Assembly (NCBI GenBank): GCA_022710775.1 | Contig: JAKLGH010000007.1 | Span: 9,184 to 62,133, forward strand | DNA length: 52,950 nucleotides | DNA from: Patescibacteria group bacterium | GTDB taxonomy: Bacteria; Patescibacteriota; Minisyncoccia; Minisyncoccales; UBA5738 | Direction of reading: 5' to 3' | In this document: piece by piece, positions 7,693 through 31,640 of the stretch | How positions within the stretch are numbered: position 1 is the first letter of the stretch | How the letters are laid out: each line of letters begins with the position of its first letter | The notes under the pieces: model-generated | The model's database searches: none | Told to the model about the DNA's origin: nothing | What the model saw: only the letters and a program-made list of their open reading frames with translations | Position numbers and translations under genes: made by a program

Positions 7693-7885
7693 GTCCAAAT
7701 GGGCGATTATGCACTTTGAAAAGAAAAAATTAAGGTTTATGATAGAATAAACAACCTCGCTTTTGGGAGAATTGGTTGTTTATTGGTTCTCCGTATAATT
7801 GCGTACTAAAAAAACGCTATCGGAACCAATAATAGCGCAAAACCAAGCTTATGGCAGTTTTCTCAACAATTTATACGCTCCAACC

Positions 7886-10800
7886 ATGCTGAACCTAAAA
7901 CACGGCCAAATCAGAACAATGGCTCAGGATGTTGCGAGCCTCCAAGGAAAAAGCTCCAAGGAAAGCGCGGTGTTGGAAAAAAACACGATAGAAGGCGACT
8001 TGGAGAGCAGGCTGGCAAATACATTGTTAGAAATGGAAAGAAGAAATGCTTCTTCGGGTTTGAGCGTGGAACAGCCGCCGATACAGGCCCAAATTCCGCC
8101 GGCTCCCGGGTTGCCGAATATGCCGGTTCCTGCGCCAACTTCCGCCCCTCCGGACCCTGCGCCTAATCCGCCGCAGCCAGATCCGGCTCTGGCTGGAAAT
8201 TCTCTGGAAAAACAACTGGAAGAAAAAATCGCCAAAGAAATGATGGCTTCTTTGCCGGACTCGTTTGGCCTTCAGATGGAGAAGCCTCCGGCTCCGCCGC
8301 AACCGGCTGCCCAAGAAAACGAAAAAGAAGAAAAAAAGCCCGAATCCGAAAAAATCAAACTTAAGAAGCCGGAACCGGCTGCTTCCCTGAAAGACAATCC
8401 TCCCGCTTTCGAAATTATGCCCAAAAGCGAAGCGGAAATCGAGGAAAAAGTTAAAAAAGAGCTTGAAGAGGAAAGGGAAAAATTAAAATTGCAAAAGTTG
8501 GAATCGGCCGAAAAAGACATTGAGGAAGAAAAAAAGAAAAAACTTGAAGAAAAAACCGCCAAAGAAAAAGAAGATGCGGTAATTTCCGAAGAAGAAAAGA
8601 AAAGGCTGAAGAGAAAAGGGGAGCTTGAATTACCCGTTCTGCTGAAAGAAGCCAAAGAAAGGATTTGCATCGACAGATCCGAAGTGGAAAAACATCTTGC
8701 AGACCTTGCCACCAAAGATGAACCGCTGGAAAAGCAAAGGGCCCAATTGAAAGCCGAAGTGGAATTGGCAAAAAGCGGAGAGCTTGGATTGATCGTTGAG
8801 AAAGAAAAGGAAATTGAAGATAAAAAAGAACGCCTCGAGAAAACCGGCGCTGCCAACCTGACGCTGGCGGACGAAAAGTTGCTGTCCCAAAAGCTCTGGG
8901 ACATCGAAGACAAGAGAAAACAAATAGAAAGAAGAAGATGGGAAATAGAAGACCAAATTACCCGATCTGAGATCGAGATAAAAAAGATCGAATTGGAGCT
9001 GGCCGATAAAAACGAAGAAAGGAACAAGATCAGGGAGGTCGTCAGCAAATTAACCGCCAAGGAAAAACTCATTGATTTTGTCGAAAAGAAAAAAACATGG
9101 ATCAAAGAAATAACCAAGATCAGAGAAGAAAAAGACGGATTGCTCCCGGAGGCGGAGACAATCGCCTCCGAAAAACAGGATAATGAAGACACGCTGAAAG
9201 AATTGATCGAAAGCGAAAAGGCTATTACCGAGGAGCTGAAAATGGTTGAAGAAAAAGAAAAACAAGCGCTAACCTACGATGAGAAAAGAGTGATTGAAAA
9301 AATGCGCTGGAAGGTGGAAAGCGACATGAGAAGGACGATCAAGGAAAAATGGCAGCATGTGCTAGCCAGGGAAAAGATCGACGAAGCTGAAAAAAACATT
9401 CTTGCCAAGATCGAAAATACCGAAAACCGGCTAAAAACACTTGAGGACGAAATATCGGCCGAAGAGATAATTTTGGAAAAAGAAGGGCTCAACGTAAGAA
9501 AAATCCGCGAAGAAATCGGCACGATCTTTGAAGAAACTGGTTTTGATTTTGACGATTCTATTCTGGAAGAGATCGACCAATCGGATTTGGTTATAAGCGA
9601 TTACCATGAAGAAGAAACTGAAGCATGGGTCAAAAAACCGGAAACAAAAGAGCCTGAAGAGGAAACCGAACCGTCTTTCGCCAATCCGGAAAACCCGGTT
9701 CCCGAAAACAAACCGGCGGCCGCGTTTAGGGAAGACGGGGACTATAGAAAAAAAAGCAGCCTGATGGCGGCGGAACCGGCCCAGCCCGCAGAACAAGCGC
9801 CTGTTGATCCGCAAGCGAGGGTGGGCAGGGAACCTCTCGCAGAGGACGCCCGCCCTAATGGCTCGTTTCTGGAACCGATCGACGATAAAGGAATCGGATC
9901 CGCTCCGAAAACAAATTTAGGCTTTCGAGACGTCGGACCGGAACAACCGGCGCCGGCCCTTGACAATCGCTGGCCTCGCGAGAACGAATCTGCGGCTGAC
10001 AACCGAGACTTATCGGCATTATATCAATCGCCCAGGCCAATTAAAAAAGAGACGGAAGAGGAAGAACCGGATAATCCCTGGACGAACCGCTGGAGCCAAA
10101 CGCAAAAACCTTCTTTCCCCGATCCGGAAATAAATCCAATGGCCGCGGCAGCCGGCAGGAAAGAAAGAAATGAAACGAAACAGGATGATGAGCTTTCTTT
10201 ATCGGAAGACCTGCCCGCAAAATCATCGAGCGGGAAAAAACTGATGATCAGGATTTTAATCCTGCTTGTCAGTCTGGCGGTTATCGGCGGAATCGTGCTA
10301 ATCGTTTTCACAAAAAAATCAAACGATAAGCCAAACGAAGAAGAACCGAACACCGAAGAGCCGGCAGGGGACGATGACAGCACGGGGGATGATGACAACG
10401 ATGACAGCACGGGGGATGATGACAACGATGACAGCACGGGGGATGATGACTCTGAACCTCCCGCCGAACCGACCTCGCTGATCTCCACCGTCTCCACTTT
10501 AAACATCAAGGGCGATGGTACCGATATTCCGGATAAGCTGTCCGCTTATCTGGAGAGGAAGTTTGAAGGCGAAGGATATTACCGGATTTTGATCCAAAAT
10601 AAAGACGATGAGTATATCGGCGTCCGGGAATTTTTCGATTTATTCGATTCAAAAACTCCGGATAACCTGTTTGACCACTTATCCGGCAATTTTACGCTTT
10701 TCGTTTACGCCAGCAAGGGAGACAACCGGCTTGGCCTTATCGCAGAAATCTCTGATCCGGACGGATTTGAAAGCCTTATGAAAAAATGGGAGACAACTAT

Positions 10801-11035
10801 GGAAAAGGACTTGGGCGGATTTTTCAAGTTCCTGGGAAAAACAAAAAACGCCTCTCCGTCATTTTTCAAGACCGGATCCATTCCGAACAGTCAGACAAAA
10901 TTCCGGTATCTTTCTTTTCCGCTTCCGCCGTCAAACACGAATTCCGGTCTTTGCTACGCGTCAAACGATAAATATTTCATCCTTACCTCGTCGGGAGAAA
11001 GCTTGATCAAGATCTTTAACCAATTAGTAAACTAA
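7886..11035 (+). CDS. Giant (about 1050 aa) hypothetical protein. It has a Pro-rich N-terminus, a roughly 600-aa E/K-rich coiled coil, a single TM helix (LMIRILILLVSLAVIGGIVLIVF), an acidic DDSTGDDDN tandem repeat (27-nt unit x2.9 at 10374-10451) and a folded C-terminal domain of about 190 aa.
   Basis: ORF track 7799-11035. The TTG at 7799 lies inside a likely -10 element (TATAAT at 7794-7799), so the start was moved to the first ATG at 7886. The start remains uncertain. Composition and repeats were read directly. Confidence 0.5.
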   Translation: MLNLKHGQIRTMAQDVASLQGKSSKESAVLEKNTIEGDLESRLANTLLEMERRNASSGLSVEQPPIQAQIPPAPGLPNMPVPAPTSAPPDPAPNPPQPDPALAGNSLEKQLEEKIAKEMMASLPDSFGLQMEKPPAPPQPAAQENEKEEKKPESEKIKLKKPEPAASLKDNPPAFEIMPKSEAEIEEKVKKELEEEREKLKLQKLESAEKDIEEEKKKKLEEKTAKEKEDAVISEEEKKRLKRKGELELPVLLKEAKERICIDRSEVEKHLADLATKDEPLEKQRAQLKAEVELAKSGELGLIVEKEKEIEDKKERLEKTGAANLTLADEKLLSQKLWDIEDKRKQIERRRWEIEDQITRSEIEIKKIELELADKNEERNKIREVVSKLTAKEKLIDFVEKKKTWIKEITKIREEKDGLLPEAETIASEKQDNEDTLKELIESEKAITEELKMVEEKEKQALTYDEKRVIEKMRWKVESDMRRTIKEKWQHVLAREKIDEAEKNILAKIENTENRLKTLEDEISAEEIILEKEGLNVRKIREEIGTIFEETGFDFDDSILEEIDQSDLVISDYHEEETEAWVKKPETKEPEEETEPSFANPENPVPENKPAAAFREDGDYRKKSSLMAAEPAQPAEQAPVDPQARVGREPLAEDARPNGSFLEPIDDKGIGSAPKTNLGFRDVGPEQPAPALDNRWPRENESAADNRDLSALYQSPRPIKKETEEEEPDNPWTNRWSQTQKPSFPDPEINPMAAAAGRKERNETKQDDELSLSEDLPAKSSSGKKLMIRILILLVSLAVIGGIVLIVFTKKSNDKPNEEEPNTEEPAGDDDSTGDDDNDDSTGDDDNDDSTGDDDSEPPAEPTSLISTVSTLNIKGDGTDIPDKLSAYLERKFEGEGYYRILIQNKDDEYIGVREFFDLFDSKTPDNLFDHLSGNFTLFVYASKGDNRLGLIAEISDPDGFESLMKKWETTMEKDLGGFFKFLGKTKNASPSFFKTGSIPNSQTKFRYLSFPLPPSNTNSGLCYASNDKYFILTSSGESLIKIFNQLVN

Positions 11036-11724: not shown

Positions 11725-13251
11725 ATGCCATCAAAAGTATTTTCGGCCGCAGTTATCGGACTGGACGCTCAAATCATCGAAGTTGAAGTGGACTCAACTT
11801 ACGGGTTAAGGCACTTTGAGATCGTCGGCTTGCCGGACAAATCGGTCCAGGAAGCCAAAGAGCGCGTCGCAACGGCAATCGACAGCGCGGGATTCCCGTC
11901 CCCGAACAACCAGCCTGTAAAAGTTTTGGTTTCTTTGGCTCCCGCCGATTTAAAAAAAGAAGGCGCTTTATATGACCTTCCAATAGCCCTCGGATATCTG
12001 CTGGCCGAAAAGATCATCAAATTCAACCCTTTGAGGAAAGTATTCATCGGAGAACTTGCCCTGGACGGAAAACTCCGGCCGGCAAAAGGCATAATATCCT
12101 TGGCTATTGCCTGTAAAGAAAAGGGGATTGAGGAGATCATTTTACCCAAGGAAAATGCCGCCGAAGGCGGTTTGATAAAAGGCGTTAAAATCATCGGCGT
12201 GGAAAGCTTAGACGAAACAATTGATTATTTAAATGGCAAAAAAATCATCGAACCGACAGTCACTGATACAAAAAATTACGTTTTTACCGGACATATCCCA
12301 GGAGACCTGGCTTTGATCTCCGGACAAGAATCGGCAAAAAGAGCCTTAGAAATCATTGCAGCGGGCGGACACAACCTGTTAATGTCGGGACCGCCGGGAA
12401 CCGGAAAAACTTTACTGGCTAAAGCTTTGCCTTCCATTATGCCGCCTTTATCATTCGAGGAATCATTGGAAGTCACTAAAGTTTACAGCGTTTGCGGCCT
12501 TCTGTCCGCAAATTCTCCTTTAATAACGCAACGGCCTTTCCGCGCCCCGCACCATACTTCATCGTGCGTCGCCCTGATCGGGGGAGGGAATCCGCCCAAG
12601 CCCGGAGAGATCACGCTGGCCCACCGGGGAGTTTTATTCCTTGATGAATTTCCGGAATTCCACCGCGACGTTCTGGAAGCGCTCCGCCAGCCGATCGAAG
12701 AGGGAAATATAAACTTATTGCGGGCGCGCCACGCTTTAACCCTTCCGGCCCGCTTTACCCTGATTTTAGCCGCCAATCCTTGTCCCTGCGGAAATTTCGG
12801 CAACCCCGACAAAAGGTGCGTCTGCGCCAGCTCCCAGATCAAAATGTACCAAAAAAAACTTTCCGGCCCGCTAATGGACCGGGTGGATCTTTTTATCACA
12901 GTGCCATCCGTTAAATACGAAAAGCTGGCGGCAACCGATAGCGACGCAAAAAGCAGCCAAGCCGCCCGGGAAAAAGTTCTGAAAGCGCGCCTCATACAGC
13001 AAATCCGTTTCAACAATTTTACCACTAACGCCGAAATGGGGATCGTTGAAATAAAAAAACACTGCCTTTTGGACGGCAGGTCGAAAACTTTGCTGAAAAA
13101 TTATGTGGATTCGGGCAAATTGTCGGCCCGGGGATACCACCGGGTTTTAAAAGTGGCGCGCACGATCGCCGACCTGGAAGGCGCAGAGAACATCCTATTT
13201 GACCATCTGGCCGAAGCCCTGATGTACCGACCCAAAGGCAGTATCGGCTAG
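11725..13251 (+). CDS. comM: YifB/ComM-family Mg-chelatase-like AAA+ ATPase
   Basis: N-terminal Lon-like domain, Walker A (MSGPPGTGKT), Walker B (LFLDEF), and the conserved C-terminal domain of the family. Confidence 0.85.
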   Translation: MPSKVFSAAVIGLDAQIIEVEVDSTYGLRHFEIVGLPDKSVQEAKERVATAIDSAGFPSPNNQPVKVLVSLAPADLKKEGALYDLPIALGYLLAEKIIKFNPLRKVFIGELALDGKLRPAKGIISLAIACKEKGIEEIILPKENAAEGGLIKGVKIIGVESLDETIDYLNGKKIIEPTVTDTKNYVFTGHIPGDLALISGQESAKRALEIIAAGGHNLLMSGPPGTGKTLLAKALPSIMPPLSFEESLEVTKVYSVCGLLSANSPLITQRPFRAPHHTSSCVALIGGGNPPKPGEITLAHRGVLFLDEFPEFHRDVLEALRQPIEEGNINLLRARHALTLPARFTLILAANPCPCGNFGNPDKRCVCASSQIKMYQKKLSGPLMDRVDLFITVPSVKYEKLAATDSDAKSSQAAREKVLKARLIQQIRFNNFTTNAEMGIVEIKKHCLLDGRSKTLLKNYVDSGKLSARGYHRVLKVARTIADLEGAENILFDHLAEALMYRPKGSIG

Positions 13252-14348
13252 CGTTTCGTGAATGGATTGACCGTGCCGATCACTTCGAAGTGCAGATGGC
13301 AGCCGGTGGACAATCCCGTATTGCCCATTAGGGCGATATTCTGTCCCTTGGAAACCGCCTGGCCCGATTTTACGAAGATCGTCTGTAAATGAAAATATTT
13401 AGTGACCGCTCCGCTCGGATGGAGAATGGTAATATAATTTCCCGCCCCCTTGTTCCAGCCATAAGCGACGCGCTGAACCGTGCCGGACGCAGACGCGTAA
13501 ATAGCATCGCCGCATTTACCGTTGGAAAGATCCACTGCGTTATTATAATGCAATCCTTGGGTCAAACGGCAAGGAAGGCTGATCGGGCACATGAAGTAAT
13601 CTCCCGGAAGGCTTAAGCCGCTTGTCAAACCCCCGTTAGGTTTAACCGTTGTGGCCGCGCCGGTTTTTGCCTTGGCAACGGCTTTCGGCATTTTTCCGCC
13701 GGGAATAATTAAAGTGTCTCCGATATAAACATCGGCTTCGTCTGAAAGTTTGTTAAAAGCCACCACATCGGCTGCTTTGGCTTGATATTTTTGCGCCACA
13801 ACCGATACCGTATCGCCGTTGGCTACGTTGTGGACAACGCCGGAAACCGGAAGAATAACCAAAATTTGGCCGGTTTTTATTTGCGCCGTCGCGGACAGAT
13901 CGTTGGCCCAAAGGATAGTGTCGGCGCTGATGCCAAACTTTTCCGCAACTCCCGCAACCGTATCTCCCTGTTCAACAATATATTCTATGATCGCTCTTTG
14001 GTCATCTTCCATTTTCAGGTTCTCTTGGTAATATTCATCTCCCCCGACCAGCGACCCGAGAACCTTGGTAGAAACCGTGATCGGGGGAGTGGAAGCCCTA
14101 ACGCAGGAGCTATCGATCAAAAGAAAATCCGGTGATTCAAGCCGGGTTTGTTTTAAGGCGTCAAGATAGGCATTTTGCGAGCTTTCGATACAAATTTGGC
14201 CATTTTCTTTGGTATTGGTAATCGTAGCCGAAAACGCCAAAGAAGCGCTAAACAAAACCGCTCCGACAAGGAGAAGTTTGGAAATATTTCTTAATTGGAC
14301 CTTAATAGACACGTATTCATTATATCGCGGCACAGGGCTAATTGTCAA
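13248..14348 (-). CDS. Secreted LysM-domain M23 metallopeptidase
   Basis: Signal peptide, two LysM-like repeats (GDTVAGVAEKFGISADTILWAN; GDTVSVVAQKYQAKAADVVAFN) and a C-terminal M23 motif (GNTGLSTGCHLHFEV). The true start may be the GTG at 14312, which gives a cleaner signal peptide. Confidence 0.75.
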   Translation of the reverse strand: MTISPVPRYNEYVSIKVQLRNISKLLLVGAVLFSASLAFSATITNTKENGQICIESSQNAYLDALKQTRLESPDFLLIDSSCVRASTPPITVSTKVLGSLVGGDEYYQENLKMEDDQRAIIEYIVEQGDTVAGVAEKFGISADTILWANDLSATAQIKTGQILVILPVSGVVHNVANGDTVSVVAQKYQAKAADVVAFNKLSDEADVYIGDTLIIPGGKMPKAVAKAKTGAATTVKPNGGLTSGLSLPGDYFMCPISLPCRLTQGLHYNNAVDLSNGKCGDAIYASASGTVQRVAYGWNKGAGNYITILHPSGAVTKYFHLQTIFVKSGQAVSKGQNIALMGNTGLSTGCHLHFEVIGTVNPFTKR

Positions 14349-15380: not shown

Positions 15381-17741
15381 ATGCCAATGTTCGATTTTTT
15401 TCATCGAAACTTCATGGTCTGCAATAAAAATTTTTTGCGTTCCCTTGGCTTGTTATTATTTTTGTTGCTGGTTTTTTCGGGAACCAACGTTCAAGCGGAA
15501 GATGATGATGACGAATGCAATCCCTGTTGCCATCACGTTTATTACACTTGCTCAAGCTCCTGCGGCGGCACCTTAAGGGACATACATCAAGACACTTGTT
15601 GCGGCGAATCATGCAACAGCCCCACGTATGATTGCGAGGACTGGCAAAAATGCGACCCGAGCGAAGCGGTCGGCGGAAAATGTTATTGCGACGGTTCCTG
15701 CCTGGAAAAACCCAAGGATCCGGTCTATTACAACAATCCGGAATATGTCCACCAGCCCCAGCACACCGTTGGAGACAAAGACGTCAAGTTGCCGGTAAAG
15801 CTTGAATGGACCGACGTACCCGGATGGAAAAACAAAGGCGGCCCGGGCGCCCATAAAAAAGATCCCTACGGCCCCCAATCCTACGTGATCGCCCTTAAAA
15901 ATACTGCCGTACTGCCGAACGCAGAAGAAGAATACACCAAAGTCCTGCCCGAATCGGAGTTCAATTCGGTATCAGACGGCCAGCCTTGCCTTTTAAAATC
16001 GGCAGCTGAAGTTCCCTGGAACGTAAAGGCCTGTTGCAATACCGACGGCACCAATTGCGGGCCCACGGCTTATTTTTCTTTTACAACCAGCTCGGCTCCC
16101 GAACCGAAGGCGCCTTACGATCCGGACTGGGTAGGGGATAAAGCCGCCGAGAACCTGGGTGTCCATACCGACGTAAACACCTTAAAACTCGAATGGTGCC
16201 CTTTAAGAGACGTGATGGCTTACCGCCTGCTGGCTTACACTGTAGATGGCAAAGAAGAAAAATGCATTCACGCCCTATCGCAAGGCAAAGATTGCAAACC
16301 CTACGATATTATGACGGCGAATGGGGCAGGAATACCTCCAACCTCGTTAAAAAACAGCGACACCGGTTTTTTTACCAAAGATTTTACTTATTCCTGGACC
16401 GTGCAAGGATGCAAAGGTTTGGATGGAATAAATTGCACCGACTGGAGCCAAAAATGGAAATTCAAATTAAATGATTTTGCTTTAGAACCCCCCAGCCTTT
16501 ACGCCCCTCCCGACGATCCGGAAGGCAAAACACCGGTCGGTCTGCCCGTTAAATTCGCTTGGGACGGCAAAGCCGGAAGCAACTCATACATCTTTGACTT
16601 AACCGGCGTAGCCTTAACGAACGAGGAAAAAAACCGCAAGATATCAACAGTAACGATAGACTATCCAAAGCTCCAACTTGACAAAATCTATACTTGGCGC
16701 GTCAAACCTTGCTGGGATTATGAATCAAAAGAATGCGAAGACGCCGCCTGGTCCAAAACTTTCACTTTCCGGACAACCGGCCGGCCTCCGATCCCGGAAT
16801 CAATGAAACCGGAAGGCAGCAATGTCGGATTGCCGGCTATCTTTACCTGGGAAAACGTCCCGGGCGCGAAATCGTTTGTTTTTCAAATAGAAGGCAATGG
16901 GATAAATTTAGAAAGAACCGTAATCGATCCTAAAGTGGCGGATATCGGCTCTCCCGACCTGAAACCCGAAAAAACCTATGTCTGGAAAGTTAAAACCTGC
17001 GCCCGCGAAGCGGGGGAATTATGCGGCGAATGGAGCGAAACGAAAAGCATCACAATTTCCGCCATCGGCGCGCCGACCAATCCCAATCCTCCCGACGGAT
17101 CAACCATCTATTCCGACGAACTGCCTAAAGACCTCACCTGGGACAAAGTTGACGGAGCCGGCGCTTACAGAACAACCATTACCTACACGGCGAAAGACGC
17201 GGACGAAACCAGTGAATGCCCGACCGGAACGTCAAAAGAACAGATAGTTTTGGGCCCAGCCCATCAAATCAGCTCTTCCTGCCTGGGAACTTACGTTTGG
17301 CAGGTCCAGTCGTGCCTTGATACCGAATGCAAGTTATTGGGCGGCACCGGTCCGGAATGGACGCTTAACATCAAACAAAACCCCGATAACGCGAAAACAA
17401 CGGGAGGCCTGGTTATTTGCGGCCGGAATTACGACAATCCAGACACCTCTTGGAACGAAAGAAACGCCTGCAACATCGGCCATATTTTTCTTATGCTCCA
17501 GGTGATCTTCGAATTCTTTCTTTTCCGGCTGTCGATCGTTATTCTGGTAATACTGGTGCTGATCACCGGCGTGATCTTTTACACATCGCTAGGCGACGCG
17601 GCCACGATCCAGCGGGTGAAAAGCCTCTGGCGGGCGGCAGGATTAGGCTATCTTATCGTGCTGTTTGGCTGGGTGGTCGTATCGGTTCTGCTTACGGTTC
17701 TGGGCTTCCAGTTCGGTTCGTGGTGGAAAATTAAAAACTGA
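15381..17741 (+). CDS. Large surface protein. It has a signal peptide, an N-terminal Cys-rich module, five ~100-aa Fn3/Ig-like repeats (recurrent L.W...PGA.SY.....YxWxVxxC...C.EWS motif), and a C-terminal 2-TM pilin-like domain.
   Basis: The repeats were aligned by eye. The C-terminal TGVIFYTSLGDAATIQRVKSLWRAAGLGYLIVLFGWVVVSVLL matches the 2-TM modules of ORFs 3646-4140 and 18566-19492. Confidence 0.6.
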   Translation: MPMFDFFHRNFMVCNKNFLRSLGLLLFLLLVFSGTNVQAEDDDDECNPCCHHVYYTCSSSCGGTLRDIHQDTCCGESCNSPTYDCEDWQKCDPSEAVGGKCYCDGSCLEKPKDPVYYNNPEYVHQPQHTVGDKDVKLPVKLEWTDVPGWKNKGGPGAHKKDPYGPQSYVIALKNTAVLPNAEEEYTKVLPESEFNSVSDGQPCLLKSAAEVPWNVKACCNTDGTNCGPTAYFSFTTSSAPEPKAPYDPDWVGDKAAENLGVHTDVNTLKLEWCPLRDVMAYRLLAYTVDGKEEKCIHALSQGKDCKPYDIMTANGAGIPPTSLKNSDTGFFTKDFTYSWTVQGCKGLDGINCTDWSQKWKFKLNDFALEPPSLYAPPDDPEGKTPVGLPVKFAWDGKAGSNSYIFDLTGVALTNEEKNRKISTVTIDYPKLQLDKIYTWRVKPCWDYESKECEDAAWSKTFTFRTTGRPPIPESMKPEGSNVGLPAIFTWENVPGAKSFVFQIEGNGINLERTVIDPKVADIGSPDLKPEKTYVWKVKTCAREAGELCGEWSETKSITISAIGAPTNPNPPDGSTIYSDELPKDLTWDKVDGAGAYRTTITYTAKDADETSECPTGTSKEQIVLGPAHQISSSCLGTYVWQVQSCLDTECKLLGGTGPEWTLNIKQNPDNAKTTGGLVICGRNYDNPDTSWNERNACNIGHIFLMLQVIFEFFLFRLSIVILVILVLITGVIFYTSLGDAATIQRVKSLWRAAGLGYLIVLFGWVVVSVLLTVLGFQFGSWWKIKN

Positions 17742-17750
17742 TAATTTCAA

Positions 17751-18545
17751 ATGAGGCCGGCAAGCTTATCCATCATAATAATCTTCGCGATGATCCCGAT
17801 CCTGGCCATTTTGGCATACGGCCAGTTTAAAACCGCTTTCAGTTCGGAATTCGACGCCGGCGCGCCGGAACCGATCCTAACCAAATTTGACCCTGGCCAA
17901 AGCCTGGAAGGGTTAAAAAAGGAAAAAAATCCGGAACGGCTGGAATTCCGCGATCCTGCCGGCAAGCTGAAAATCAGCTACGATTCTTCCTGGACCAAGG
18001 CCGAAGACGATATCATCAAAAAAGCCGATAACCTAGCCCAATTGGAAAACGAAGATCTGCTGCTGCTGCTTTACAAAGTGGATTTTAACAGCTTCCAGCC
18101 GTCTTATCTGGCTGTCGAGCGCGTCAAAAATGGGAATTGGAACGACATAGTGGCAACAATGGAACAGGAAGCAAAAGCTAAAAACCAGGCAATGGAAGTC
18201 TTAAGATCGGACATCTCAAAAAACCGGGTAAGCCTGGAAATAAAATTCGTTTCGGCGGCTGATGCAAAAAATAAGATCACGACCCGCCAGTGGGCTGAAA
18301 TACTGGTCGACGGGGATGAAAGCTATATCGTTTTGCTGATGACCACGGAACAAAACTGGCCGGCATTCGAAAAAGAAGCTGGCGAGATCGCCGGCTCCAT
18401 AGAGTTCCTCGGCCAACCCTTAACCCCGGCGGTAGAAGAACAGCCAAATATTGATAACGATCCAGCCGCTGGCAACGGCGACAGTTCCAGCGATGCCGGC
18501 GTCATTAAAGCCATCGGCATCCCGGCGCCCGAACAAAACAATTAA
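17751..18545 (+). CDS. Hypothetical secreted or membrane-anchored protein (N-terminal signal-anchor), located inside the pilin locus
   Basis: ORF track. N-terminal hydrophobic helix. No family recognised. Confidence 0.5.
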   Translation: MRPASLSIIIIFAMIPILAILAYGQFKTAFSSEFDAGAPEPILTKFDPGQSLEGLKKEKNPERLEFRDPAGKLKISYDSSWTKAEDDIIKKADNLAQLENEDLLLLLYKVDFNSFQPSYLAVERVKNGNWNDIVATMEQEAKAKNQAMEVLRSDISKNRVSLEIKFVSAADAKNKITTRQWAEILVDGDESYIVLLMTTEQNWPAFEKEAGEIAGSIEFLGQPLTPAVEEQPNIDNDPAAGNGDSSSDAGVIKAIGIPAPEQNN

Positions 18546-18565: not shown

Positions 18566-19492
18566 ATGGCCAAACCAATCAACAAAAAATTATTTTCCTT
18601 GCTGGCGGTTGCCGGATGTTTCGCGTTTTTCGCGCTGGCCTACGCCCTGGAAACTTCCTGGCCGGAATCTCCGATGAAAACCAAGGTTGACGACACAACC
18701 AACCTGGCTGTTTTCATCAAATACATTTACGAGTGGGGGATAGCGCTGGGCGGCGTGGCAACCTTTATCGCTTTTGTGATCGCCGGGTTCCAATACATCA
18801 CTTCTATCGGCGATCCGCAAACCATGAAGGACGCCGTCGACCGCATCAAATCGGCGATGTTTGGCCTGGTGTTGCTGTTATCGGCTTACGTTCTGTTGAA
18901 TACCATCAATCCCGAATTGGTAAGCTTCCGCCTCGACCCTTTTAATCCCCAGCTTAACGGAGAATTTTTTGAGTCTTGCCAGGCAAACAGCGGCACTTGC
19001 AGACCAGGATACGAATGTAAATTACTTGGCGAAAAAGGCATCTGCTGGCCAAAAGATTATGCCGGCCCGGTCTGTAAAGATGCCGAAATCTATTCGCAAA
19101 CCAATTTCAAAGGGACTAAAACCGTCCTTAGCGTCAACGAAACCCTTGAAGGCGGAGACAACATGCCCAAATCGGTCAGAGCCCGATACATAGACGATGA
19201 TTGCAAAGAATACCTGAAAAAAAATAAAGACAAAGTGGACGGCAGAACCAGCTGTTATTGCGATGAACGGGTTGCTCCCAGCGGCGGGGAGGAAGAAGAT
19301 TCGACTACGATGGTCGGAGAGAAAAACGGCTGCGGCTGCGTGCTCCGGCTTTATAACGAAGATGACGGCTGGCTTTGGTCCGATTGCGGGGATGTGATCA
19401 CGGACGTGCCGGCCTACGAAGCCGATCTGACCCAATGGTTCGACCGGGACGTATATTGCGTGGAGCTTCTGTCGCCCGGAGCCGATAAGTAA
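18566..19492 (+). CDS. Pilin-like protein: signal peptide plus a 2-TM pilin-like domain, followed by a C-terminal Cys-rich extracellular domain
   Basis: AGFQYITSIGDPQTMKDAVDRIKSAMFGLVLLLSAYVLLNTI is paralogous to the other two pilin-like modules. The C-terminus contains about 14 Cys. Confidence 0.6.
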   Translation: MAKPINKKLFSLLAVAGCFAFFALAYALETSWPESPMKTKVDDTTNLAVFIKYIYEWGIALGGVATFIAFVIAGFQYITSIGDPQTMKDAVDRIKSAMFGLVLLLSAYVLLNTINPELVSFRLDPFNPQLNGEFFESCQANSGTCRPGYECKLLGEKGICWPKDYAGPVCKDAEIYSQTNFKGTKTVLSVNETLEGGDNMPKSVRARYIDDDCKEYLKKNKDKVDGRTSCYCDERVAPSGGEEEDSTTMVGEKNGCGCVLRLYNEDDGWLWSDCGDVITDVPAYEADLTQWFDRDVYCVELLSPGADK

Positions 19493-22345: not shown

Positions 22346-22377
22346 AGAAAAATAAAATAGGGATCTTGATATCCCTA
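22345..22377 (-). terminator. Terminator hairpin for the minus-strand SPFH gene (TAGGGAT-cttgat-ATCCCTA, T-rich on the minus strand). It overlaps the stop codon.
   Basis: Read directly. Confidence 0.5.
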
Positions 22378-23589
22378 TTCTTCCTCTTTATTTGATTTTC
22401 CTTTTTGTTGTGGCTGCCCTCCTTGCCTGGCCTGCATACCCCGCGACAATAAATGAAGCGGGGTAGTAAGACCCAACGGATCCTTGCCTTCGAGGCCAGA
22501 AACCTCTATTTGTTCCTGGTGCACATCTTTCTTGATAAGCTTGCGGAATAACAACCAGGTTTCCGTAGCTTTCTCCGGGTTCAGGCCGATTCTATCCCGC
22601 AACTCAATGATTGAATCGCGGAAATGCTCCCGCTCGGTCTTCTCGGACCTCTGCTCCAGTTCTTCTTTTGCCAGATCATCCCTGGCTTTCTGGATATAAT
22701 CCGGCAAGCCGATATCCGGTACCGTAATTTGCAGAATCTCGATACCGACAAGCCGAAGAACAAGGTGCCTGGAACCGTTATTAAAAGAACTGATCATTTC
22801 CGATTTCAAGGCTTCGTCTTCGACGTTGACAATCGTGCTGATGATCGCTTCGCGAAAACCCTTTTTATCTTTTAAGGCCTTTTCCATCTTTTTTGTAATG
22901 GCGTATTCACGAATCCCTTGATTAGTTGGATCGCTAATAATGTCTTCCACGCCTGCCGCTTGCCCGACATCCAGATAGCGAATGACGGAAAACGGATTCT
23001 TGTAATCAGGGTGCCAGGTCATGGAAGCTAAAACCCCGATTGTCCCATTCTTAACAGCAACTCTCACTTGGGACAAATCAGTGTTTTTATCCATCACATC
23101 GATCCGGATCACATCCCAAATAAAGGGGATCACCAGGCAGTATCCCTCTTGAACAAGATAAGGAATCCTGCCTCCCATCCAGGTACGAATGCCGATCTGT
23201 TTCGGCGTTGCCTGCACTTCCTTAATAAATAAAATTGCAAGCAAGCCGCTGGCCGCGAAACAACATAGAGCTTGGGTAAAATTTACCCAAACCCCGCCGG
23301 CCAGATAATAAAGGCCCAAAGCTAAGGGTAAGACCAGCAACAATCCGGCGAGCACATTCATGCGATGCTCAAGACTAGCCGCAGCAGCCATCTCTGTTTG
23401 CTGTTCTTCTGTATATTCAGAGCGCCCACTTGCTGTGGGTGCCGGCGTTTCTACCGCTGGTTCCGGTTCAGGCCTTGGTAGCCCATGTTCCGAACCTTCT
23501 GCCGGATTTTGATCTGTTCCGGCATTGCGCCCCGGCGTATCATCTTCGGAAGGTAGTACCGGGCCGTGCATTGGCCCAAAATTATCCAT
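22375..23589 (-). CDS. SPFH/band-7 (stomatin/prohibitin-like) membrane protein with a disordered N-terminal extension
   Basis: Two N-terminal hydrophobic helices are followed by a region with the flavour of an SPFH core (IRTWMGGRIPYLVQEGYCLVIPFIWDVIRIDVMDKNTDLSQVRVAVKNGTIGVLASMTWHP) and a coiled-coil C-terminus. Confidence 0.55.
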   Translation of the reverse strand: MDNFGPMHGPVLPSEDDTPGRNAGTDQNPAEGSEHGLPRPEPEPAVETPAPTASGRSEYTEEQQTEMAAAASLEHRMNVLAGLLLVLPLALGLYYLAGGVWVNFTQALCCFAASGLLAILFIKEVQATPKQIGIRTWMGGRIPYLVQEGYCLVIPFIWDVIRIDVMDKNTDLSQVRVAVKNGTIGVLASMTWHPDYKNPFSVIRYLDVGQAAGVEDIISDPTNQGIREYAITKKMEKALKDKKGFREAIISTIVNVEDEALKSEMISSFNNGSRHLVLRLVGIEILQITVPDIGLPDYIQKARDDLAKEELEQRSEKTEREHFRDSIIELRDRIGLNPEKATETWLLFRKLIKKDVHQEQIEVSGLEGKDPLGLTTPLHLLSRGMQARQGGQPQQKGKSNKEEE

Positions 23590-24372: not shown

Positions 24373-24810
24373 ATGAATTTCATCCTACCCCAATTCATCG
24401 ATATGGAAACCAAGGTGATCGGACCGCTCACTTTGAAGCAATTCATATACCTCGGGATCGGGGGCGGAGCGTCGCTCTTCCTTTACATGATGTCAACCTC
24501 CAATCCGGAGGGGTTTCCTTTAATAGCCTGCCTGGCTATAGTGATACTCATTATGCTGGTTTCGTTCGCCCTCGCCTTCGTTAAGGTGAACGGGATAACT
24601 CTGCCGGTACTGATAAAACATTCCTTCCTTTTTAACCTGGCGCCCAAAATTTATCTTTGGAAAAAATTCCCTAACGCCAAAATCGTCAACCCAAACCAGG
24701 GAGTGATTAAAATAGTAAAAGGACCGGCAAGCAAAAAAGCCGACCGGGTCACTACAAAAAAAAGCGAACTGAAAAAATTAAGGAACTTTATGGAAACGAA
24801 AGGCAATTGA
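24373..24810 (+). CDS. PrgI/VirB3-like small membrane protein of a Gram-positive-type T4SS
   Basis: A 145-aa protein with an N-terminal motif (IPQFIDMETKVIGPLTLKQFIYL) and two TM helices, lying immediately upstream of VirB4. This is the typical PrgI-PrgJ arrangement. Confidence 0.6.
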   Translation: MNFILPQFIDMETKVIGPLTLKQFIYLGIGGGASLFLYMMSTSNPEGFPLIACLAIVILIMLVSFALAFVKVNGITLPVLIKHSFLFNLAPKIYLWKKFPNAKIVNPNQGVIKIVKGPASKKADRVTTKKSELKKLRNFMETKGN

Positions 24811-24832: not shown

Positions 24833-25459
24833 ATGGCATTCACATCAACCCAACAATTCCTAGAGATCGACCAGATAAAAGAAGGCGTTATCGTCTTAAA
24901 AAACAAGGCTCTGCGCGGCCTCCTGATGGTTTCTTCGATCAATTTCGCTTTAAAAGCGGAAGACGAGCAAACCGCCATTATTTACCAATTCCAGAGTTTT
25001 CTCAATTCGCTGGATTTTTCGCTGGAAATTTTTATCCAAAGCCGGCAGCTGAATATCACGAATTACCTGGATAAGTTAAAAGACCTGGAAATAAGGCAAA
25101 CCAACGACCTTTTAAGGATCCAAACCGCCGAATACCGAAAGTTCATCAATGAGCTGATATCGTCGGGTTCGATCATGAATAAAACCTTTTACGTGGTCAT
25201 CCCTTTCACTTTGATGAATCTGCCTAACCTCCCGAAATCAAAAGAAGCGGCCAGGTCCGCCAGCGAGGAACAATTCCAGCGCGCCAAATCCCAGTTATGG
25301 CAGCGGATGGAATTCGTGGCGCTCGGCCTCCGGCGCTGCGGCCTTCAATGCGTTCCGTTGAACAGCCTGGAACTGGTTGAATTCTTTTGGAGCCTGTACC
25401 ATCCGCAGGAATCGGAAAGCGGTTATTATCCTGAAATCCCGCCGGAGCTGATAACTTGA
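24833..25459 (+). CDS. virB4: VirB4/TraC-family ATPase, N-terminal fragment (208 aa)
   Basis: ...IDQIKEGVIVLKNKALRGLLMVSSINFALKAEDEQTAIIYQFQSFLNSLDFSLEIFIQSRQLN resembles the extreme N-terminus of Gram-positive VirB4 (PrgJ/ConE-like) proteins. It terminates at a TGA at 25457-25459. Confidence 0.55.
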   Translation: MAFTSTQQFLEIDQIKEGVIVLKNKALRGLLMVSSINFALKAEDEQTAIIYQFQSFLNSLDFSLEIFIQSRQLNITNYLDKLKDLEIRQTNDLLRIQTAEYRKFINELISSGSIMNKTFYVVIPFTLMNLPNLPKSKEAARSASEEQFQRAKSQLWQRMEFVALGLRRCGLQCVPLNSLELVEFFWSLYHPQESESGYYPEIPPELIT

Positions 25460-25487: not shown

Positions 25488-27278
25488 ATGGGTCTTTTCT
25501 CTTCCAAAAAAAAGCAAAAAAAACAGGATTTAGGCCAAAGCCTCGAGATCAACACGATCAATATCAAGGATATCATCGCGCCTTCTTCGATCGCTTTGTC
25601 CAGCGAATATCTTAAGCTGGGGGAAAAATTCGGAAAATCCTTCTTTATTTTTTCTTATCCGCGCTATTTGACGACGGGGTGGTTTGCGCCGATCATCAAT
25701 CTGGAAAGCCCGATGGATATTTCTTTCCATATCCATCCGATCGAGACAGGAACAACGTTGAAACAGCTGCGGAAAAAGCTCACTGAAGTGCAAGCCGAGC
25801 TGATGGAAAGGGAAGAAAAGGGGTTGGTGCGCGATCCCGCGCTGGAAATCGCTTACCAGGACCTTGAATCCCTCCGCGACAAGCTCCAAACCTCCCAAGA
25901 GCGCATGTTCAAGCTTGGAATATACCTTACGGTTTATGAAAATTCCTTGGAAAAATTGAAATCCGTTGAAACGACCCTCCGGTCGATACTTGAATCGAAA
26001 TTAATATATATCAAGCCGTCTCTTTACCAGCAAAAGGAGGGATTCACTTCAACCTGCCCTTACGGTTTAGACGAGATCAATGCGCATACTCCGATGAATA
26101 CCGGACCGCTTTCTTCAACTTTCCCCTTCATCTCCTTTGATTTAAGCGCCAACGACGGCATCCTCTACGGCGTGAACCTCCACAATAATTCTTTGATCCT
26201 GTTTGACCGGTTCAGCCTTGAAAACGCCAACAGCGTGATCTTCGCCAAATCCGGCGCCGGTAAGAGTTACGCCATCAAGCTGGAAGTCCTGCGCTCCATG
26301 ATGATGGGAGTTGAATCGATCATCGTCGATCCGGAAAACGAATACCGGGCCCTCGCGGAAGCGGCCGGAGGTTCATTCATCAACATCTCCCTTACGTCGC
26401 CAAACCATATCAATCCGTTCGATTTGCCGATCCCGCGAGACGACGAGGATCCGGAAAACGTGTTGCGCAGCAATATTATCAACCTGGTTGGCCTTGTCCG
26501 GATCATTTTAGGGGGCTTGTCGCCCGAGGAAGACGCGATCATCGACCGGGCCCTCACGGAAGTTTACGCCGCCAAAGACATCACGCCGGAAACCGACCCC
26601 AGCCTCTGGAAAGAAAGAACGCCGTTGATGCAAGATCTGGAAGCCGTGCTTGAAGGCATGGAAGGAACGGAATCGCTTGTAAGGAGAATCAGAAAATTCA
26701 CCAAGGGAACGTACGCGCAATTTTTCAACCAGCCAAGCAATATCTCAATGGATAAGCTGATGGTGGTTTTCGGCATCCGCGACATGGAGAACGAGTTGCG
26801 TACGGCAGCAATGTTTATTATTATGCGCCATATCTGGAACAAAGTAAGGATGACTTTGAAAAAAAGAATCTTGGTGGTCGACGAGGCTTGGTGGCTTATG
26901 CAAACCGAAGATGGAGCGTCTTTCCTGTACGGTCTTTGCAAAAGGGCCAGAAAATACTGGCTTGGCGTTACCACCATCACGCAAGACGTTGGCGATTTCA
27001 TGAAATCAACTTATGGCCAGCCGATTATTACCAACTCATCGATACAGTTTTTAATGAAGCAATCTCCGGCAACGATCGATATCCTCCAAAAAACTTTTAA
27101 CCTTACCGAAGGAGAAAAAAATCTTTTGCTCGAAGCCGAAGTGGGGGAGGGGCTTTTCTTTGCCGGCCAGAAACACGTTGCCATAAAAGGAATCGCTTCC
27201 TACGTGGAAGATCAAATCATCACCACCAGCCCCGAAGAGATCCAAAAGATCAAAAAGGCAAAAAGCGGCAACGAATGA
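25488..27278 (+). CDS. virB4: VirB4/TraC-family ATPase, main fragment (596 aa)
   Basis: Walker A FAKSGAGKSYAI and Walker B ILVVDEAWW, plus the VirB4 N-domain motif KFGKSFFIFSYPRYLTTGWFAPIIN. It is in a different reading frame from the upstream fragment. The two frames overlap over only about 5 nt around 25455. Confidence 0.85.
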   Translation: MGLFSSKKKQKKQDLGQSLEINTINIKDIIAPSSIALSSEYLKLGEKFGKSFFIFSYPRYLTTGWFAPIINLESPMDISFHIHPIETGTTLKQLRKKLTEVQAELMEREEKGLVRDPALEIAYQDLESLRDKLQTSQERMFKLGIYLTVYENSLEKLKSVETTLRSILESKLIYIKPSLYQQKEGFTSTCPYGLDEINAHTPMNTGPLSSTFPFISFDLSANDGILYGVNLHNNSLILFDRFSLENANSVIFAKSGAGKSYAIKLEVLRSMMMGVESIIVDPENEYRALAEAAGGSFINISLTSPNHINPFDLPIPRDDEDPENVLRSNIINLVGLVRIILGGLSPEEDAIIDRALTEVYAAKDITPETDPSLWKERTPLMQDLEAVLEGMEGTESLVRRIRKFTKGTYAQFFNQPSNISMDKLMVVFGIRDMENELRTAAMFIIMRHIWNKVRMTLKKRILVVDEAWWLMQTEDGASFLYGLCKRARKYWLGVTTITQDVGDFMKSTYGQPIITNSSIQFLMKQSPATIDILQKTFNLTEGEKNLLLEAEVGEGLFFAGQKHVAIKGIASYVEDQIITTSPEEIQKIKKAKSGNE

Positions 27279-27369: not shown

Positions 27370-27843
27370 CTATGCCGCCGGCCTCACTATCACTTTTCTT
27401 CTTGGCTCTTCCCCGACGCTGGCCGTCCTTATGTCCTGGCGTTGCGACAGCTCGACATGCACGATCCGTCTCTCATAAGGAGTCATTGGCGGCAGCAATT
27501 TTTCGCGGCGGCTTAATGACACCTCGTCAGCCGTCGACTTTGCCAGCTCCCTTAAATATTCCGCTTTCTTTTTTTTATAATTATTGATATCCAGATCAAC
27601 ATAGACGGTATCCGATATTTGGCGCTTCAGTACGATCTTTAAAAGATGCTGGATCTCGAAAAGAGTTTCCCCGTTCTGGCCGATCAAAGTCTGCGGCTCT
27701 TCCAGCTTTAACTCAACCGGAATCGTTGATTCTTTAACCGGCAAAACGTCCACCTTGGCTTCAAAGCCTAATTTTTGGAAAAACTCCTCAACCGTTTTCT
27801 TGATTTTTTTCGAATCGGTTTTGTTCATCATATTTTTTTGCAA
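27370..27843 (-). CDS. jag: Jag/KhpB RNA-binding protein (KH plus R3H domains)
   Basis: Domain order, and its position downstream of yidC in the conserved rpmH-rnpA-yidC-jag cluster. Confidence 0.8.
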   Translation of the reverse strand: MQKNMMNKTDSKKIKKTVEEFFQKLGFEAKVDVLPVKESTIPVELKLEEPQTLIGQNGETLFEIQHLLKIVLKRQISDTVYVDLDINNYKKKKAEYLRELAKSTADEVSLSRREKLLPPMTPYERRIVHVELSQRQDIRTASVGEEPRRKVIVRPAA

Positions 27844-27883
27844 TTAATAAAGATAAAAAAGAATAACCGCTTCTTTTGACAGC

Positions 27884-28627
27884 CTATACCCGGCTTACTG
27901 ACGCCCCAAGCTTGGCCGAAACCAAGCTTCTCAAAACCAAATATTGCTGGGCAATGGAAAAAACGCTTGATGTAATCCAATAAAGGCTAAGTGCGGACGG
28001 CAGTTTCCAAAAAATAAATACCGTAACAGCGGGAAAAAAGTAAAGCATATACTTCTGCATTTGGCTTTGCATCTCTTCCATCATGTCGGTTTCTCCGCCG
28101 TTGCGCGTAGCGCGGGGAGTCAGATCGGTGACCATTTTTGTCTGGAAGTATTGCAAAACACCGGCAATAATAGCCATAAATAAACTTCCTTTAGCCAAGT
28201 CAAAGCCAAAAAAATTGGAATCAATCATTCCGGGATTGGAAACCGAAGGATACAGTTTGGTTAATATTTCAGGGGTGATGCCGTAAAAAAATACGTAATA
28301 CAGCCCGATCATTATCGGAACCTGGATCAAAATCAGCAAAACTCCTTTTAACGGATTTAGCTTGTTCTCTTTGAAAAGATCCATCGTTAAAAGCGTCTGC
28401 TTTTCCTTGTCGTTCTTATATTTATTCTTGATCTCTTTGATCTTTGGCTGAAGATCGGATGTGATCTTTTGGATCCGGATAGATTCGGACGCCAAAGGAT
28501 AGAGCAAAAGCCTGATCAAAACAGTCAGCACGATAACCGCCAGGCCAAAACTATGGCTAGGCAGGTAATTATAAATGATGATCAGCGCGTTCAGCAGCGG
28601 CTGATAAAAGATTTGAAAGAAATTCAT
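27884..28627 (-). CDS. yidC: Membrane protein insertase YidC (short Gram-positive/CPR form, 247 aa)
   Basis: Multi-TM protein with the conserved YidC/Oxa1 core, in its canonical cluster position. Confidence 0.85.
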   Translation of the reverse strand: MNFFQIFYQPLLNALIIIYNYLPSHSFGLAVIVLTVLIRLLLYPLASESIRIQKITSDLQPKIKEIKNKYKNDKEKQTLLTMDLFKENKLNPLKGVLLILIQVPIMIGLYYVFFYGITPEILTKLYPSVSNPGMIDSNFFGFDLAKGSLFMAIIAGVLQYFQTKMVTDLTPRATRNGGETDMMEEMQSQMQKYMLYFFPAVTVFIFWKLPSALSLYWITSSVFSIAQQYLVLRSLVSAKLGASVSRV

Positions 28628-28977
28628 AGCTTGTCGCTCATAATTATTCCCGAACGCGCAAAACTCTTTTTCATGTCTTTTTCGATTCGCGGATAATCCA
28701 TTTTTTCCAATCCAGGCATGGCTATAAAGATCAAGTCATGACCGGGCTTAAGAAGGGGAAGGGCGGCTCTGGCTATTTCTCTCATCCGCCTTTTAATCAA
28801 ATTGCGGCCGACTGCGGTTTTGGAAACGCGCTTAGACACCACAAAACAAAAACGAACAGTTTCCAGCCGGCTCTTGGCTGTTTTTAATACCAAGAACCCT
28901 TCTTTAACGCTTTTCCCCCGCAAAAAAACGCCGTCAATCTCTTTTTTTTTACACAGACGGTTGATTTTTGGGAGCAT
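28624..28977 (-). CDS. rnpA: Ribonuclease P protein component
   Basis: RnpA-like sequence (…RLKKKEIDGVFLRGKS…FVVSKRVSKTAVGRNLIKRRMRE…). Located between rpmH and yidC. Confidence 0.85.
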   Translation of the reverse strand: MLPKINRLCKKKEIDGVFLRGKSVKEGFLVLKTAKSRLETVRFCFVVSKRVSKTAVGRNLIKRRMREIARAALPLLKPGHDLIFIAMPGLEKMDYPRIEKDMKKSFARSGIIMSDKL

Positions 28978-28980
28978 GGG

Positions 28981-29115
28981 TTAAGCTGAAAGCCGTTTTC
29001 TGCCTTTGGCGCGCCGCGCCTTTATAACTCTTTTGCCGCCGGTTGTTCGAGTTCTTTTCAGAAAACCATGGGTTTTTCTCCTTTTTTTCTTTTTTGGCTG
29101 GTATGTTGTGCTCAT
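28981..29115 (-). CDS. rpmH: 50S ribosomal protein L34 (44 aa). It is absent from the ORF track because it is under 60 aa.
   Basis: Hand translation of the minus strand gives [44 protein letters not shown], a canonical L34. Confidence 0.85.
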
Positions 29116-31286: not shown

Positions 31287-31640
31287 GTTTTCAAACGAGC
31301 TTTGGTTTTGCTTTTTTCGCCGAAATTACAAAAACCACAAAACGTTTCAAATATTCGGCAATTGTTTAAAAGAGGTGGAAAACCAAGTGAAAAAGTCAAT
31401 AATTGGTTGAGCGTAGCTGGTTGATAAAATCACCCTTTATTGCCCGGCCCAATCATTCCTCTAACCATCCACAACAAATTATCATCCCTTATCCCCATTT
31501 ATTCCTACCGCGTTTGAATTCAAACCAACGGTTTTCCACAGCGCTAATAATAGTAATAATAAATAAAAATATTAAAAATTTAAAAAATAATATTATTAAA
31601 GAGGGTGAGGGTAAACTTTAAAAAACCGCCCAAACATTAA
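31287..31640. promoter_or_regulatory. Putative oriC part 2 / DNA-unwinding element (dnaA-dnaN intergenic)
   Basis: DnaA-box-like TTATCCCCA (31489-31497) and TTTTCCACA (31532-31540), followed by a 70-nt stretch that is over 90% A+T (31545-31615). Confidence 0.5.

Follow-up and report, generated by a model that had tools for sequence, protein, structure and literature searches.

The type IV secretion systems (T4SS) of candidate phyla radiation (CPR) members carry VirB2-like pilins of the family PF18895, an example of which is the essential pilin array of Southlakia epibionticum. In Paceibacteria an MPF-FATA-like T4SS is found next to dnaA, ksgA and rnpA, with VirB2-like pilins nearby and with M23/LysM homologues of VirB1 associated with virB4. 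Most of these clusters have no relaxase, and no adhesins were detected in Patescibacteria T4SS in the same 2025 survey (Quinonero-Coronel et al. 2025, PMC12102498). In the sole genetically tractable Patescibacterium, host-dependent growth cannot proceed without the T4SS and its array of pilins (PMC10633639; review PMC12857230). A survey of monoderm VirB2-like proteins took in only those of 50-150 amino acids (aa) and reported no ectodomain fusions (bioRxiv 10.64898/2025.12.18.695078), and the CPR T4SS and VirB2 literature searched, in which VirB2 is treated as a small protein, gave no account of a VirB2-type pilin joined to a large ectodomain. Such a fusion is the subject of this analysis. It is encoded at positions 15381..17741 of a 52,950-nucleotide (nt) stretch of contig JAKLGH010000007.1 (assembly GCA_022710775.1), hereafter the window, and is termed the fused pilin.

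The fused pilin is a modular VirB2-type pilin of a chromosomal monoderm-type T4SS from a Paceibacteria (CPR) bacterium. It begins with a Sec signal peptide, continues with an ectodomain of 630 aa and ends in a complete mature PF18895 (VirB2-like) pilin, and the ectodomain is made up of an orphan Cys-rich head and five disulfide-rich fibronectin type III (Fn3)-like domains. Confidence in this anatomy and in the family assignment is high. An earlier note on the same DNA, made from the sequence alone, had described the 786-aa open reading frame (ORF), and its ends, plus strand and ATG start are exactly as given there. The fused pilin is homologous to the CPR PF18895 pilins over the entire mature pilin and, like them, is encoded with VirB6, VirB3 and VirB4 genes near dnaA (PMC12102498). 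However, in those pilins, which are typically 115-283 aa long, the signal peptide leads directly into the mature pilin, whereas in the fused pilin 630 aa stand between the two. Homology, predicted topology and gene context are thus those of a PF18895 pilin, while the protein is not small and its score lies below the Pfam threshold.

Other monoderm T4SS are also accompanied by large surface proteins with stalks of immunoglobulin (Ig)-like domains, i.e., PrgB of pCF10 and the thioester-domain adhesin of pLS20, which serve in cell-cell contact (PMC12102498, PMC8092201). These adhesins are anchored to the wall by sortase through an LPXTG motif, whereas the fused pilin has no LPXTG, polymer-adhesin or thioester domain and has a pilin hairpin as its anchor instead. 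The same design, in which a functional module grafted on a pilin gives an adhesive filament, is displayed by PilB and PilC of the type 4 pili of Streptococcus sanguinis (PMC8179133). However, PilB and PilC belong to a non-homologous class of pilins with a prepilin-peptidase signal, a single N-terminal helix and a C-terminal module; in the fused pilin the module is N-terminal to a two-helix pilin. Another two-helix protein of a monoderm T4SS is PrgF, a VirB2-like protein of Gram-positive systems that has been proposed to sit on a VirB6 pentamer (bioRxiv 10.64898/2025.12.18.695078).

The pilin module and the ectodomain

The last 106 aa of the fused pilin were used in a phmmer search of all window ORFs of at least 60 aa. 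Two ORFs stand out, 3646..4140 with E 6.7e-9 and 18566..19492 with E 7.8e-4; every other match is at E 0.058 or weaker, and the similarity of the first two is above chance. The kinship with two other pilin-like modules in the window, which the earlier note had proposed, is therefore upheld. The homologous segment had been put at 90 aa; it is about 115 aa and includes a pre-membrane loop, C680...C697, with both Cys invariant. The module consists of, in order, a GLV(P/I)CG...C loop, transmembrane (TM) helix 1, a basic loop, TM helix 2 and a G.WW.I aromatic tail.

A profile of the family C-terminus was compared by HHalign with ORF 3646..4140 (probability 98.7%, E 4.7e-16) and with an alignment of 14 bare pilins, i.e., pilins without an ectodomain (probability 99.9%, E 1.4e-31, 113 columns). 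The alignment with the bare pilins begins at GLVPCG, directly after their signal peptides. Thus the fused pilin corresponds to a signal peptide, an inserted ectodomain of 630 aa and a complete mature pilin. A profile of the last 115 aa of the family finds bare PF18895 proteins of 130-190 aa at E 1e-22 to 1e-4, and PF18895 is matched by 20 of 40 full-length homologues at E<=0.01, the best at E 2.3e-9. Bare relatives P0077, P0094 and P0096 carry PF04956 in addition to PF18895.

Mean pairwise identity in the family is 57% for the pre-TM loop, 48% for the hairpin and 58% for the tail, vs 35-44% for the ectodomain. Conservation falls on the same positions in bare pilins and in the fused family (Spearman 0.37, p 6e-5), namely LVPCG, C, F.L, P, G, K, G, W.I and W. 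A generic membrane anchor would not be so constrained, and the module is thus a pilin rather than such an anchor, as the earlier note had supposed. Judged by these profile comparisons, the C-terminus truly belongs among the T4SS pilins of CPR bacteria.

When the bare-pilin profile was compared with PDB, spurious matches to PsaF of photosystem I were obtained (E ~0.002). They arise from the signal peptide and a chance GLTPCG, and PsaF was rejected as a pilin relative on these grounds. The match is a trap for automated annotation of CPR pilins.

Hydropathy shows only three hydrophobic segments in the fused pilin, the core of the signal peptide, aa 705-734 and aa 758-771, and the loop between the last two has three K/R and one D/E (net +2). 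Cleavage of the signal peptide is probable between VQA and ED. With an N-terminal signal peptide, both termini of the hairpin and the ectodomain are predicted to be outside. The protein had been called secreted; the prediction is instead that it stays anchored in the membrane and exposes its ectodomain on the cell surface. Several other classes were considered and rejected: a lipoprotein (no lipobox), a type IV prepilin (no class III motif, G followed by F/M-T-L-x-E, a Sec-type signal, and hydrophobic helices that are C-terminal), an LPXTG protein (no LPXTG close to the C-terminus) and a phage protein (no PHROGs match for the full sequence).

An AlphaFold2 (AF2) model of the full-length protein was built from a 40-sequence family alignment and has a mean predicted local distance difference test score (pLDDT) of 81.5, with values <50 over the signal peptide. 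It displays a Cys-rich head of beta-strands, five beta-sandwich domains and a helical hairpin (699-734/740-773); a separate model of the hairpin has a pLDDT of 79.8. There are 33 Cys in the protein, of which 13 are within aa 46-107, in agreement with the Cys-dense N-terminal module of the earlier note, and 28 are kept in at least 80% of the 40 homologues. The conserved Cys suggest disulfide-stapled extracellular domains. The strands of the head (aa 50-57, 61-71, 82-92, 100-103 and 112-117) have pLDDT 70-89, and 9 of its Cys are kept in at least 80% of homologues. No match to the head was found in Pfam, NCBIfam, PHROGs or PDB sequences, nor was one found for the head together with the first Fn3-like domain, R1 (aa 40-240), in PDB sequences, or for the full protein in PHROGs and NCBIfam.

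Foldseek searches of PDB returned tandem FnIII ectodomains as the best matches (E 3e-14 to 1e-8, probability 1.00), i.e., those of gp130, IL-12/23 receptors, RPTP-sigma/LAR, contactins and fibronectin 10-12 (FN10-12). Thus the repeats are Fn3-like, and the earlier assignment to the Fn3/Ig type holds. Of the claim that five repeats share a signature, the five domains are borne out as beta-sandwiches, each with a nearly invariant Cys pair. However, only R3 and R4 are significantly alike in sequence (E 2.5e-12), and the other repeats have only the motif Y.W.V..C...C in common. The fused pilin itself is below the Pfam cut-offs for fn3-type families (Ig_Rha78A_N 21.7 vs 27.4 bits; Pur_ac_phosph_N 16.8 vs 30). 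Among the homologues, Ig_Rha78A_N is matched by 27/40 and fn3 by 3/40, and Pur_ac_phosph_N also occurs.

Spread of the family and its variants

A full-length family profile was used to search 1.84 billion representatives at 50% identity, and 1,749 of them match at E<=1e-30. The pilin module is present in 135 of the 150 best representatives and is at the extreme C-terminus in 134, so that the fusion, which the earlier note had proposed to look for in metagenomes, is abundant there. The pilin-bearing representatives among these 150 are 356-1668 aa long (median 836), and bare relatives of the small pilin (n=116) are 115-283 aa (median 144). Names at NCBI place the family in Paceibacterota, Nealsonbacteria and Parcubacteria. 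A protein identical to the fused pilin (P0001) is present on 7 public metagenome contigs; a scan of GTDB genomes with the single protein gave only one close locus. A near-identical protein is labelled "hypothetical protein [Ca. Paceibacterota bacterium]" at NCBI, and some long members from Ca. Nealsonbacteria and Ca. Paceibacterota are labelled "pilin". The earlier note had known of no described architecture of this kind. No description was found in the literature searched, which agrees with it. The members are nevertheless numerous and abound in public data, and some are already auto-labelled "pilin".

The remaining 15 of the 150 best representatives are giants of 1,240-3,818 aa with 6-21 Fn3 repeats of the R3/R4 type and without a pilin module (P0101, P0140, P0143, P0200, P0208 and ten others). 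They may represent CPR surface fibres of a related class that are anchored in another way.

In four relatives a peptidase is inserted inside R1, Peptidase_M23 in P0022, P0057 and P0060 and Peptidase_C39_2 in P0008. The inserts, delimited with BLASTP and Pfam, are 250-330 aa long and lie between the two halves of R1, and the stalk and pilin are kept. L009, L010 and L011 are loci with such a peptidase insert, and in L010 there are two paralogues in tandem, each of which bears M23. The idea that relatives bearing M23 lose the separate LysM-M23 gene was rejected, as both are present in L009 and L011.

The T4SS locus and related loci

The features of the fused pilin and of the T4SS genes in the window are given in Table 1. 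The fused pilin gene heads a co-directional block that continues with the 264-aa ORF, the 308-aa pilin and the VirB6-like gene, and the intergenic gaps among these four are 9-27 nt. A bidirectional terminator-like hairpin (22356..22379), with a 9-11 bp stem and T-runs on both strands, separates the end of the VirB6-like gene from a convergent Band_7/SPFH gene (22375..23589, minus strand). The hairpin probably marks the end of an operon that begins at or before the fused pilin gene. A weak promoter-like site (9/12) is found directly 5′ of that gene; in the promoter scan as a whole, sites were no more frequent than in shuffled sequence (16 vs 12.4 +/- 3.0).

Table 1. Coordinates of the fused pilin, its parts and the T4SS-related genes in the window (R1 to R5, Fn3-like domains)
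Feature	Position	Strand	Evidence
Bare small pilin paralogue, ~157 aa from ATG at 3667, signal peptide then SGLVPCGG	3646..4140	+	PF18895 E 3.2e-4, PF04956 E 4.5e-4, both below cut-off; phmmer, HHalign
LysM + Peptidase_M23 cell-wall hydrolase, candidate VirB1 analogue, divergent	13248..14348	-	Pfam
Fused pilin, whole gene, 786 aa, ATG start	15381..17741	+	ORF list, AF2 model
Sec-type signal peptide, aa 1-39, h-region ~aa 20-33	15381..15497	+	Hydropathy peak aa 26-30, basic n-region, VQA/ED c-region
Orphan head domain of beta-strands, aa 46-117, rich in Cys (13)	15516..15731	+	AF2
R1, aa 135-238	15783..16094	+	AF2, Foldseek; peptidase insertion site in relatives
R2, aa 265-363	16173..16469	+	AF2, Foldseek; conserved C273, C295, C305, C344, C352
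R3, aa 380-467	16518..16781	+	AF2 pLDDT >90; sub-threshold Pfam Ig_Rha78A_N aa 423-465
R4, aa 476-562	16806..17066	+	AF2; similarity to R3
R5, aa 570-668	17088..17384	+	AF2; conserved C613, C634, C645, C650
Pilin module, aa 672-786, complete mature VirB2-like (PF18895) form	17394..17738	+	HHalign, AF2 hairpin, hydropathy
Conserved 264-aa protein, N-terminal TM helix, between fused pilin and second pilin	17751..18545	+	ORF list
Second pilin, 308 aa, PF18895 module aa 46-114	18566..19492	+	Pfam 36.3 vs 26.6 bits; NCBIfam pilin-like conjugal transfer protein E 2e-5
VirB6/TrbL-like polytopic membrane protein, 924 aa	19520..22294	+	Pfam TrbL E 8.5e-4, below cut-off; conserved position
PrgI (VirB3-like)	24373..24810	+	Pfam PF12666, 39.3 bits
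TraC-like T4SS protein	24833..25459	+	Precomputed Pfam PF26593 on identical contig
VirB4-type ATPase	25488..27278	+	Pfam P-loop_TraG 86 bits, AAA_10 48 bits

On the 5′ side of the fused pilin gene are ksgA and the divergent LysM-M23 hydrolase gene. The T4SS block adjoins jag (R3H), yidC, rnpA, dnaA and dnaN (27370..32774), the replication-origin region, and this location agrees with that reported for the Paceibacteria T4SS (PMC12102498). A VirB5-, TrbJ- or PrgB-like protein was not found when the fused pilin and its neighbours were searched with Pfam and NCBIfam. The 264-aa protein has no family match in Pfam, NCBIfam or PHROGs and may be an unrecognised T4SS component. The VirB6/TrbL-like protein ends in a low-complexity tail of about 330 aa that is rich in Gly, Pro, Arg and Gln.

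The gene order ksgA, family gene, an unassigned gene, pilin, VirB6-like, ..., PrgI, TraC-like and VirB4 is found in nine related loci, whose family proteins are 29-100% identical to the fused pilin. A LysM-M23 gene is just upstream of the family gene in every related locus that reaches it. Seven loci continue downstream beyond the family gene, and in six of them a gene of 205-264 aa lies between it and the pilin; L005 has none, and L009 stops at the family gene. A bare pilin of 135-164 aa is found close to rpsO in every related locus reaching that position, and in L003, L005, L009 and L011 it is at the same position as ORF 3646..4140.

The second pilin bears a Cys-rich C-terminal extension of about 190 aa without a family match. 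It is the mirror image of the fused pilin, with its pilin module N-terminal and its extension C-terminal. In most related loci it is found, at 292-367 aa, just 5′ of the VirB6-like gene. Since the C-terminal extension is kept in relatives, the lineage holds three pilin architectures: bare, N-terminally extended and C-terminally extended.

Farther upstream, 7799..11035 (plus strand) encodes a Glu/Lys-rich, coiled-coil-like protein of 1,078 aa with one membrane helix at about aa 800 and DDSTGDDDND repeats, which has no Pfam match above noise. The genes that occupy its position in relatives vary widely in length (329-1,117 aa).

Possible roles of the fused pilin

A conjugative pilus is extended at its base, on a VirB6 pentamer, and the first pentamer to be mounted comes to lie at the tip (Mace et al. 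2022, PMC9259494). For monoderm T4SS, models place VirB2-like proteins on VirB6 pentamers (bioRxiv 10.64898/2025.12.18.695078). A role of the fused pilin as a pilus-tip adhesin, as put forward in the earlier note, is plausible. After Sec export and cleavage of the signal peptide, the hairpin would lie in the membrane with both ends outside, like that of any VirB2 pilin, and because of this insertion the ectodomain would project from the N-terminal, outward-facing end of the pilin. The VirB6-like platform probably recruits the pilin module as it does the bare pilin 3646..4140, because the module retains all family-specific conserved positions. The fused pilin would be a minor subunit, present in a few copies, of a short pilus or conduit. 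Its likeliest place would be the first, hence distal, layer of a base-grown filament, where it would form a distal crown of stalks. The stalk of about 20 nm would hold the head (and in some relatives a peptidase) against the envelope of a partner or host, and the fused pilin would act as a functional stand-in for VirB5 or for the sortase-anchored, PrgB-type T4SS adhesins.

The likeness proposed here to VirB5/TrwJ, the pilus-tip protein of Gram-negative T4SS, is that a few copies are placed on VirB6 and carried to the distal, target-contacting end (PMC9259494). However, there is no sequence relation between the two, and VirB5 is helical rather than a pilin with Fn3 domains. In some relatives the outermost Fn3 domain carries a peptidase, which suggests that a cell wall is the substrate of the distal end.

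Taken as one composite, from the anatomy through to host contact, the distal-adhesin reading stands at an even balance of belief and doubt. The distal-adhesin step by itself is more tentative and falls somewhat short of that balance. Stated in full, the proposal is that the fused pilin may be the first modular VirB2-type pilin, with an adhesive ectodomain, which in some relatives would cleave peptidoglycan, at the distal, host-touching end of a CPR T4SS filament, and that it could supply the adhesin/VirB5 function and link episymbiotic Paceibacteria to the host envelope, perhaps breaching it; in this form it is a possibility that we regard with some doubt.

Several observations weigh against the distal-adhesin reading. 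The C-terminus of the fused pilin is under the PF18895 cut-off (E 0.11, 13.0 vs 26.6 bits), the full-length protein has no PF18895 match at E<=0.1, and no TrbC/VirB2 (PF04956) match was found for it in Pfam. When profiles of the module and of the bare pilins were compared with PDB, no solved VirB2 or TraA was significant (VirB2 8exh_A, E 5.3). The tie to the classical VirB2/TraA pilins is only indirect, by way of ORF 3646..4140, whose PF04956 match is itself below cut-off, and of the bare relatives P0077, P0094 and P0096. Fold searches with the hairpin return generic hairpins only, with nothing below E 2 in Foldseek, and it should be noted that superposition on VirB2, the check proposed in the earlier note, is uninformative for so simple a fold as a helical hairpin. 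The conserved gene order also takes in the housekeeping genes ksgA, pnp and rpsO, and part of the synteny therefore reflects the collinearity that related genomes show in general. Identity within the head is 35%, close to that of the stalk, and the head is thus not hypervariable; binding to a conserved ligand, or to the wall of the cell itself, would agree with this better than binding to a host receptor that differs among strains. Lastly, a demonstration of filament formation by a PF18895 pilin was not found in the CPR T4SS literature.

The alternative that survives best is a T4SS accessory that does not polymerise. The pilin-derived hairpin would serve only as an anchor, perhaps beside VirB6, and the Fn3 stalk would span the cell's own wall and surface (S-) layer as a scaffold or as a carrier of wall-remodelling activity, which would place the protein functionally nearer to VirB1/PrgK/CwlT or to VirB8-type components than to a pilus tip. 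The M23 or C39-like peptidase domains in the stalk of relatives and the LysM-M23 gene that is always adjacent speak for it, as does a head conserved like the stalk, which is consistent with a self ligand such as peptidoglycan. Fn3 domains are usually 3.5-4 nm long, and five of them would measure about 18-20 nm, roughly the thickness of a monoderm envelope. However, conservation in the protein is highest in the pre-TM loop, the hairpin and the tail, where the signature positions of bare pilins are retained, and a mere anchor would not need this. In addition, the fused pilin has no hydrolase domain in Pfam or NCBIfam, and the M23-bearing relatives retain the separate LysM-M23 gene, so that the fusion is no replacement for it. 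An accessory of this kind is unlikely, but it deserves serious consideration.

Far less probable is a major structural pilin, with a stalk on every subunit of the filament and the pilus a bottle brush. The pilin module is complete, as this would demand, and in the F-, T- and R388-pilus structures VirB2-type pilins have their two termini on the outer side of the pilus, so that outward display is geometrically allowed. However, a five-subunit layer of a conjugative (F-like) pilus rises only ~1.2-1.5 nm, which leaves each subunit room for about one Fn3 cross-section and would make the stalks very crowded. A bare pilin and a C-terminally extended pilin are moreover co-conserved in the same genomes, and the typical PF18895 protein is as small as the bare relatives described above.

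A precursor that is cut before GLVPCG, to give a small pilin and a released Fn3 protein, is less likely still. The fusion junction is exactly at the mature N-terminus of the bare pilins, and VirB2, TrbC and TraA pilins are known to undergo unusual processing. However, no h-region or AXA precedes the junction (...NPDNAKTTGG before LVICG), which makes a cut by signal peptidase I unlikely; the linker is short and variable, and no dedicated protease is evident in the operon by Pfam. Least probable of all, and disfavoured, is an ordinary surface adhesin unrelated to the T4SS, with a two-helix anchor and beside T4SS genes by genome collinearity only: the synteny does extend to the housekeeping genes ksgA and pnp, but the whole 115-aa module is homologous to T4SS pilins at the profile level, and the gene is tightly packed and co-directional with another pilin and the VirB6-like gene.

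As a conserved and abundant family in which a complete T4SS pilin bears an Fn3 stalk and head of 70 kDa, the fused pilins are a concrete candidate for the contact element of the Patescibacteria T4SS. The fused pilin offers an antigen or tag for finding the T4SS by cryo-electron tomography (cryo-ET) or immunolabelling, and a binding module for tests with the host envelope. The peptidase-carrying variants hint at local cleavage of the wall. If the distal-adhesin reading is true, VirB2-type pilins can be modular in the way that type IV pilins are, and searches restricted to small proteins would miss such members.

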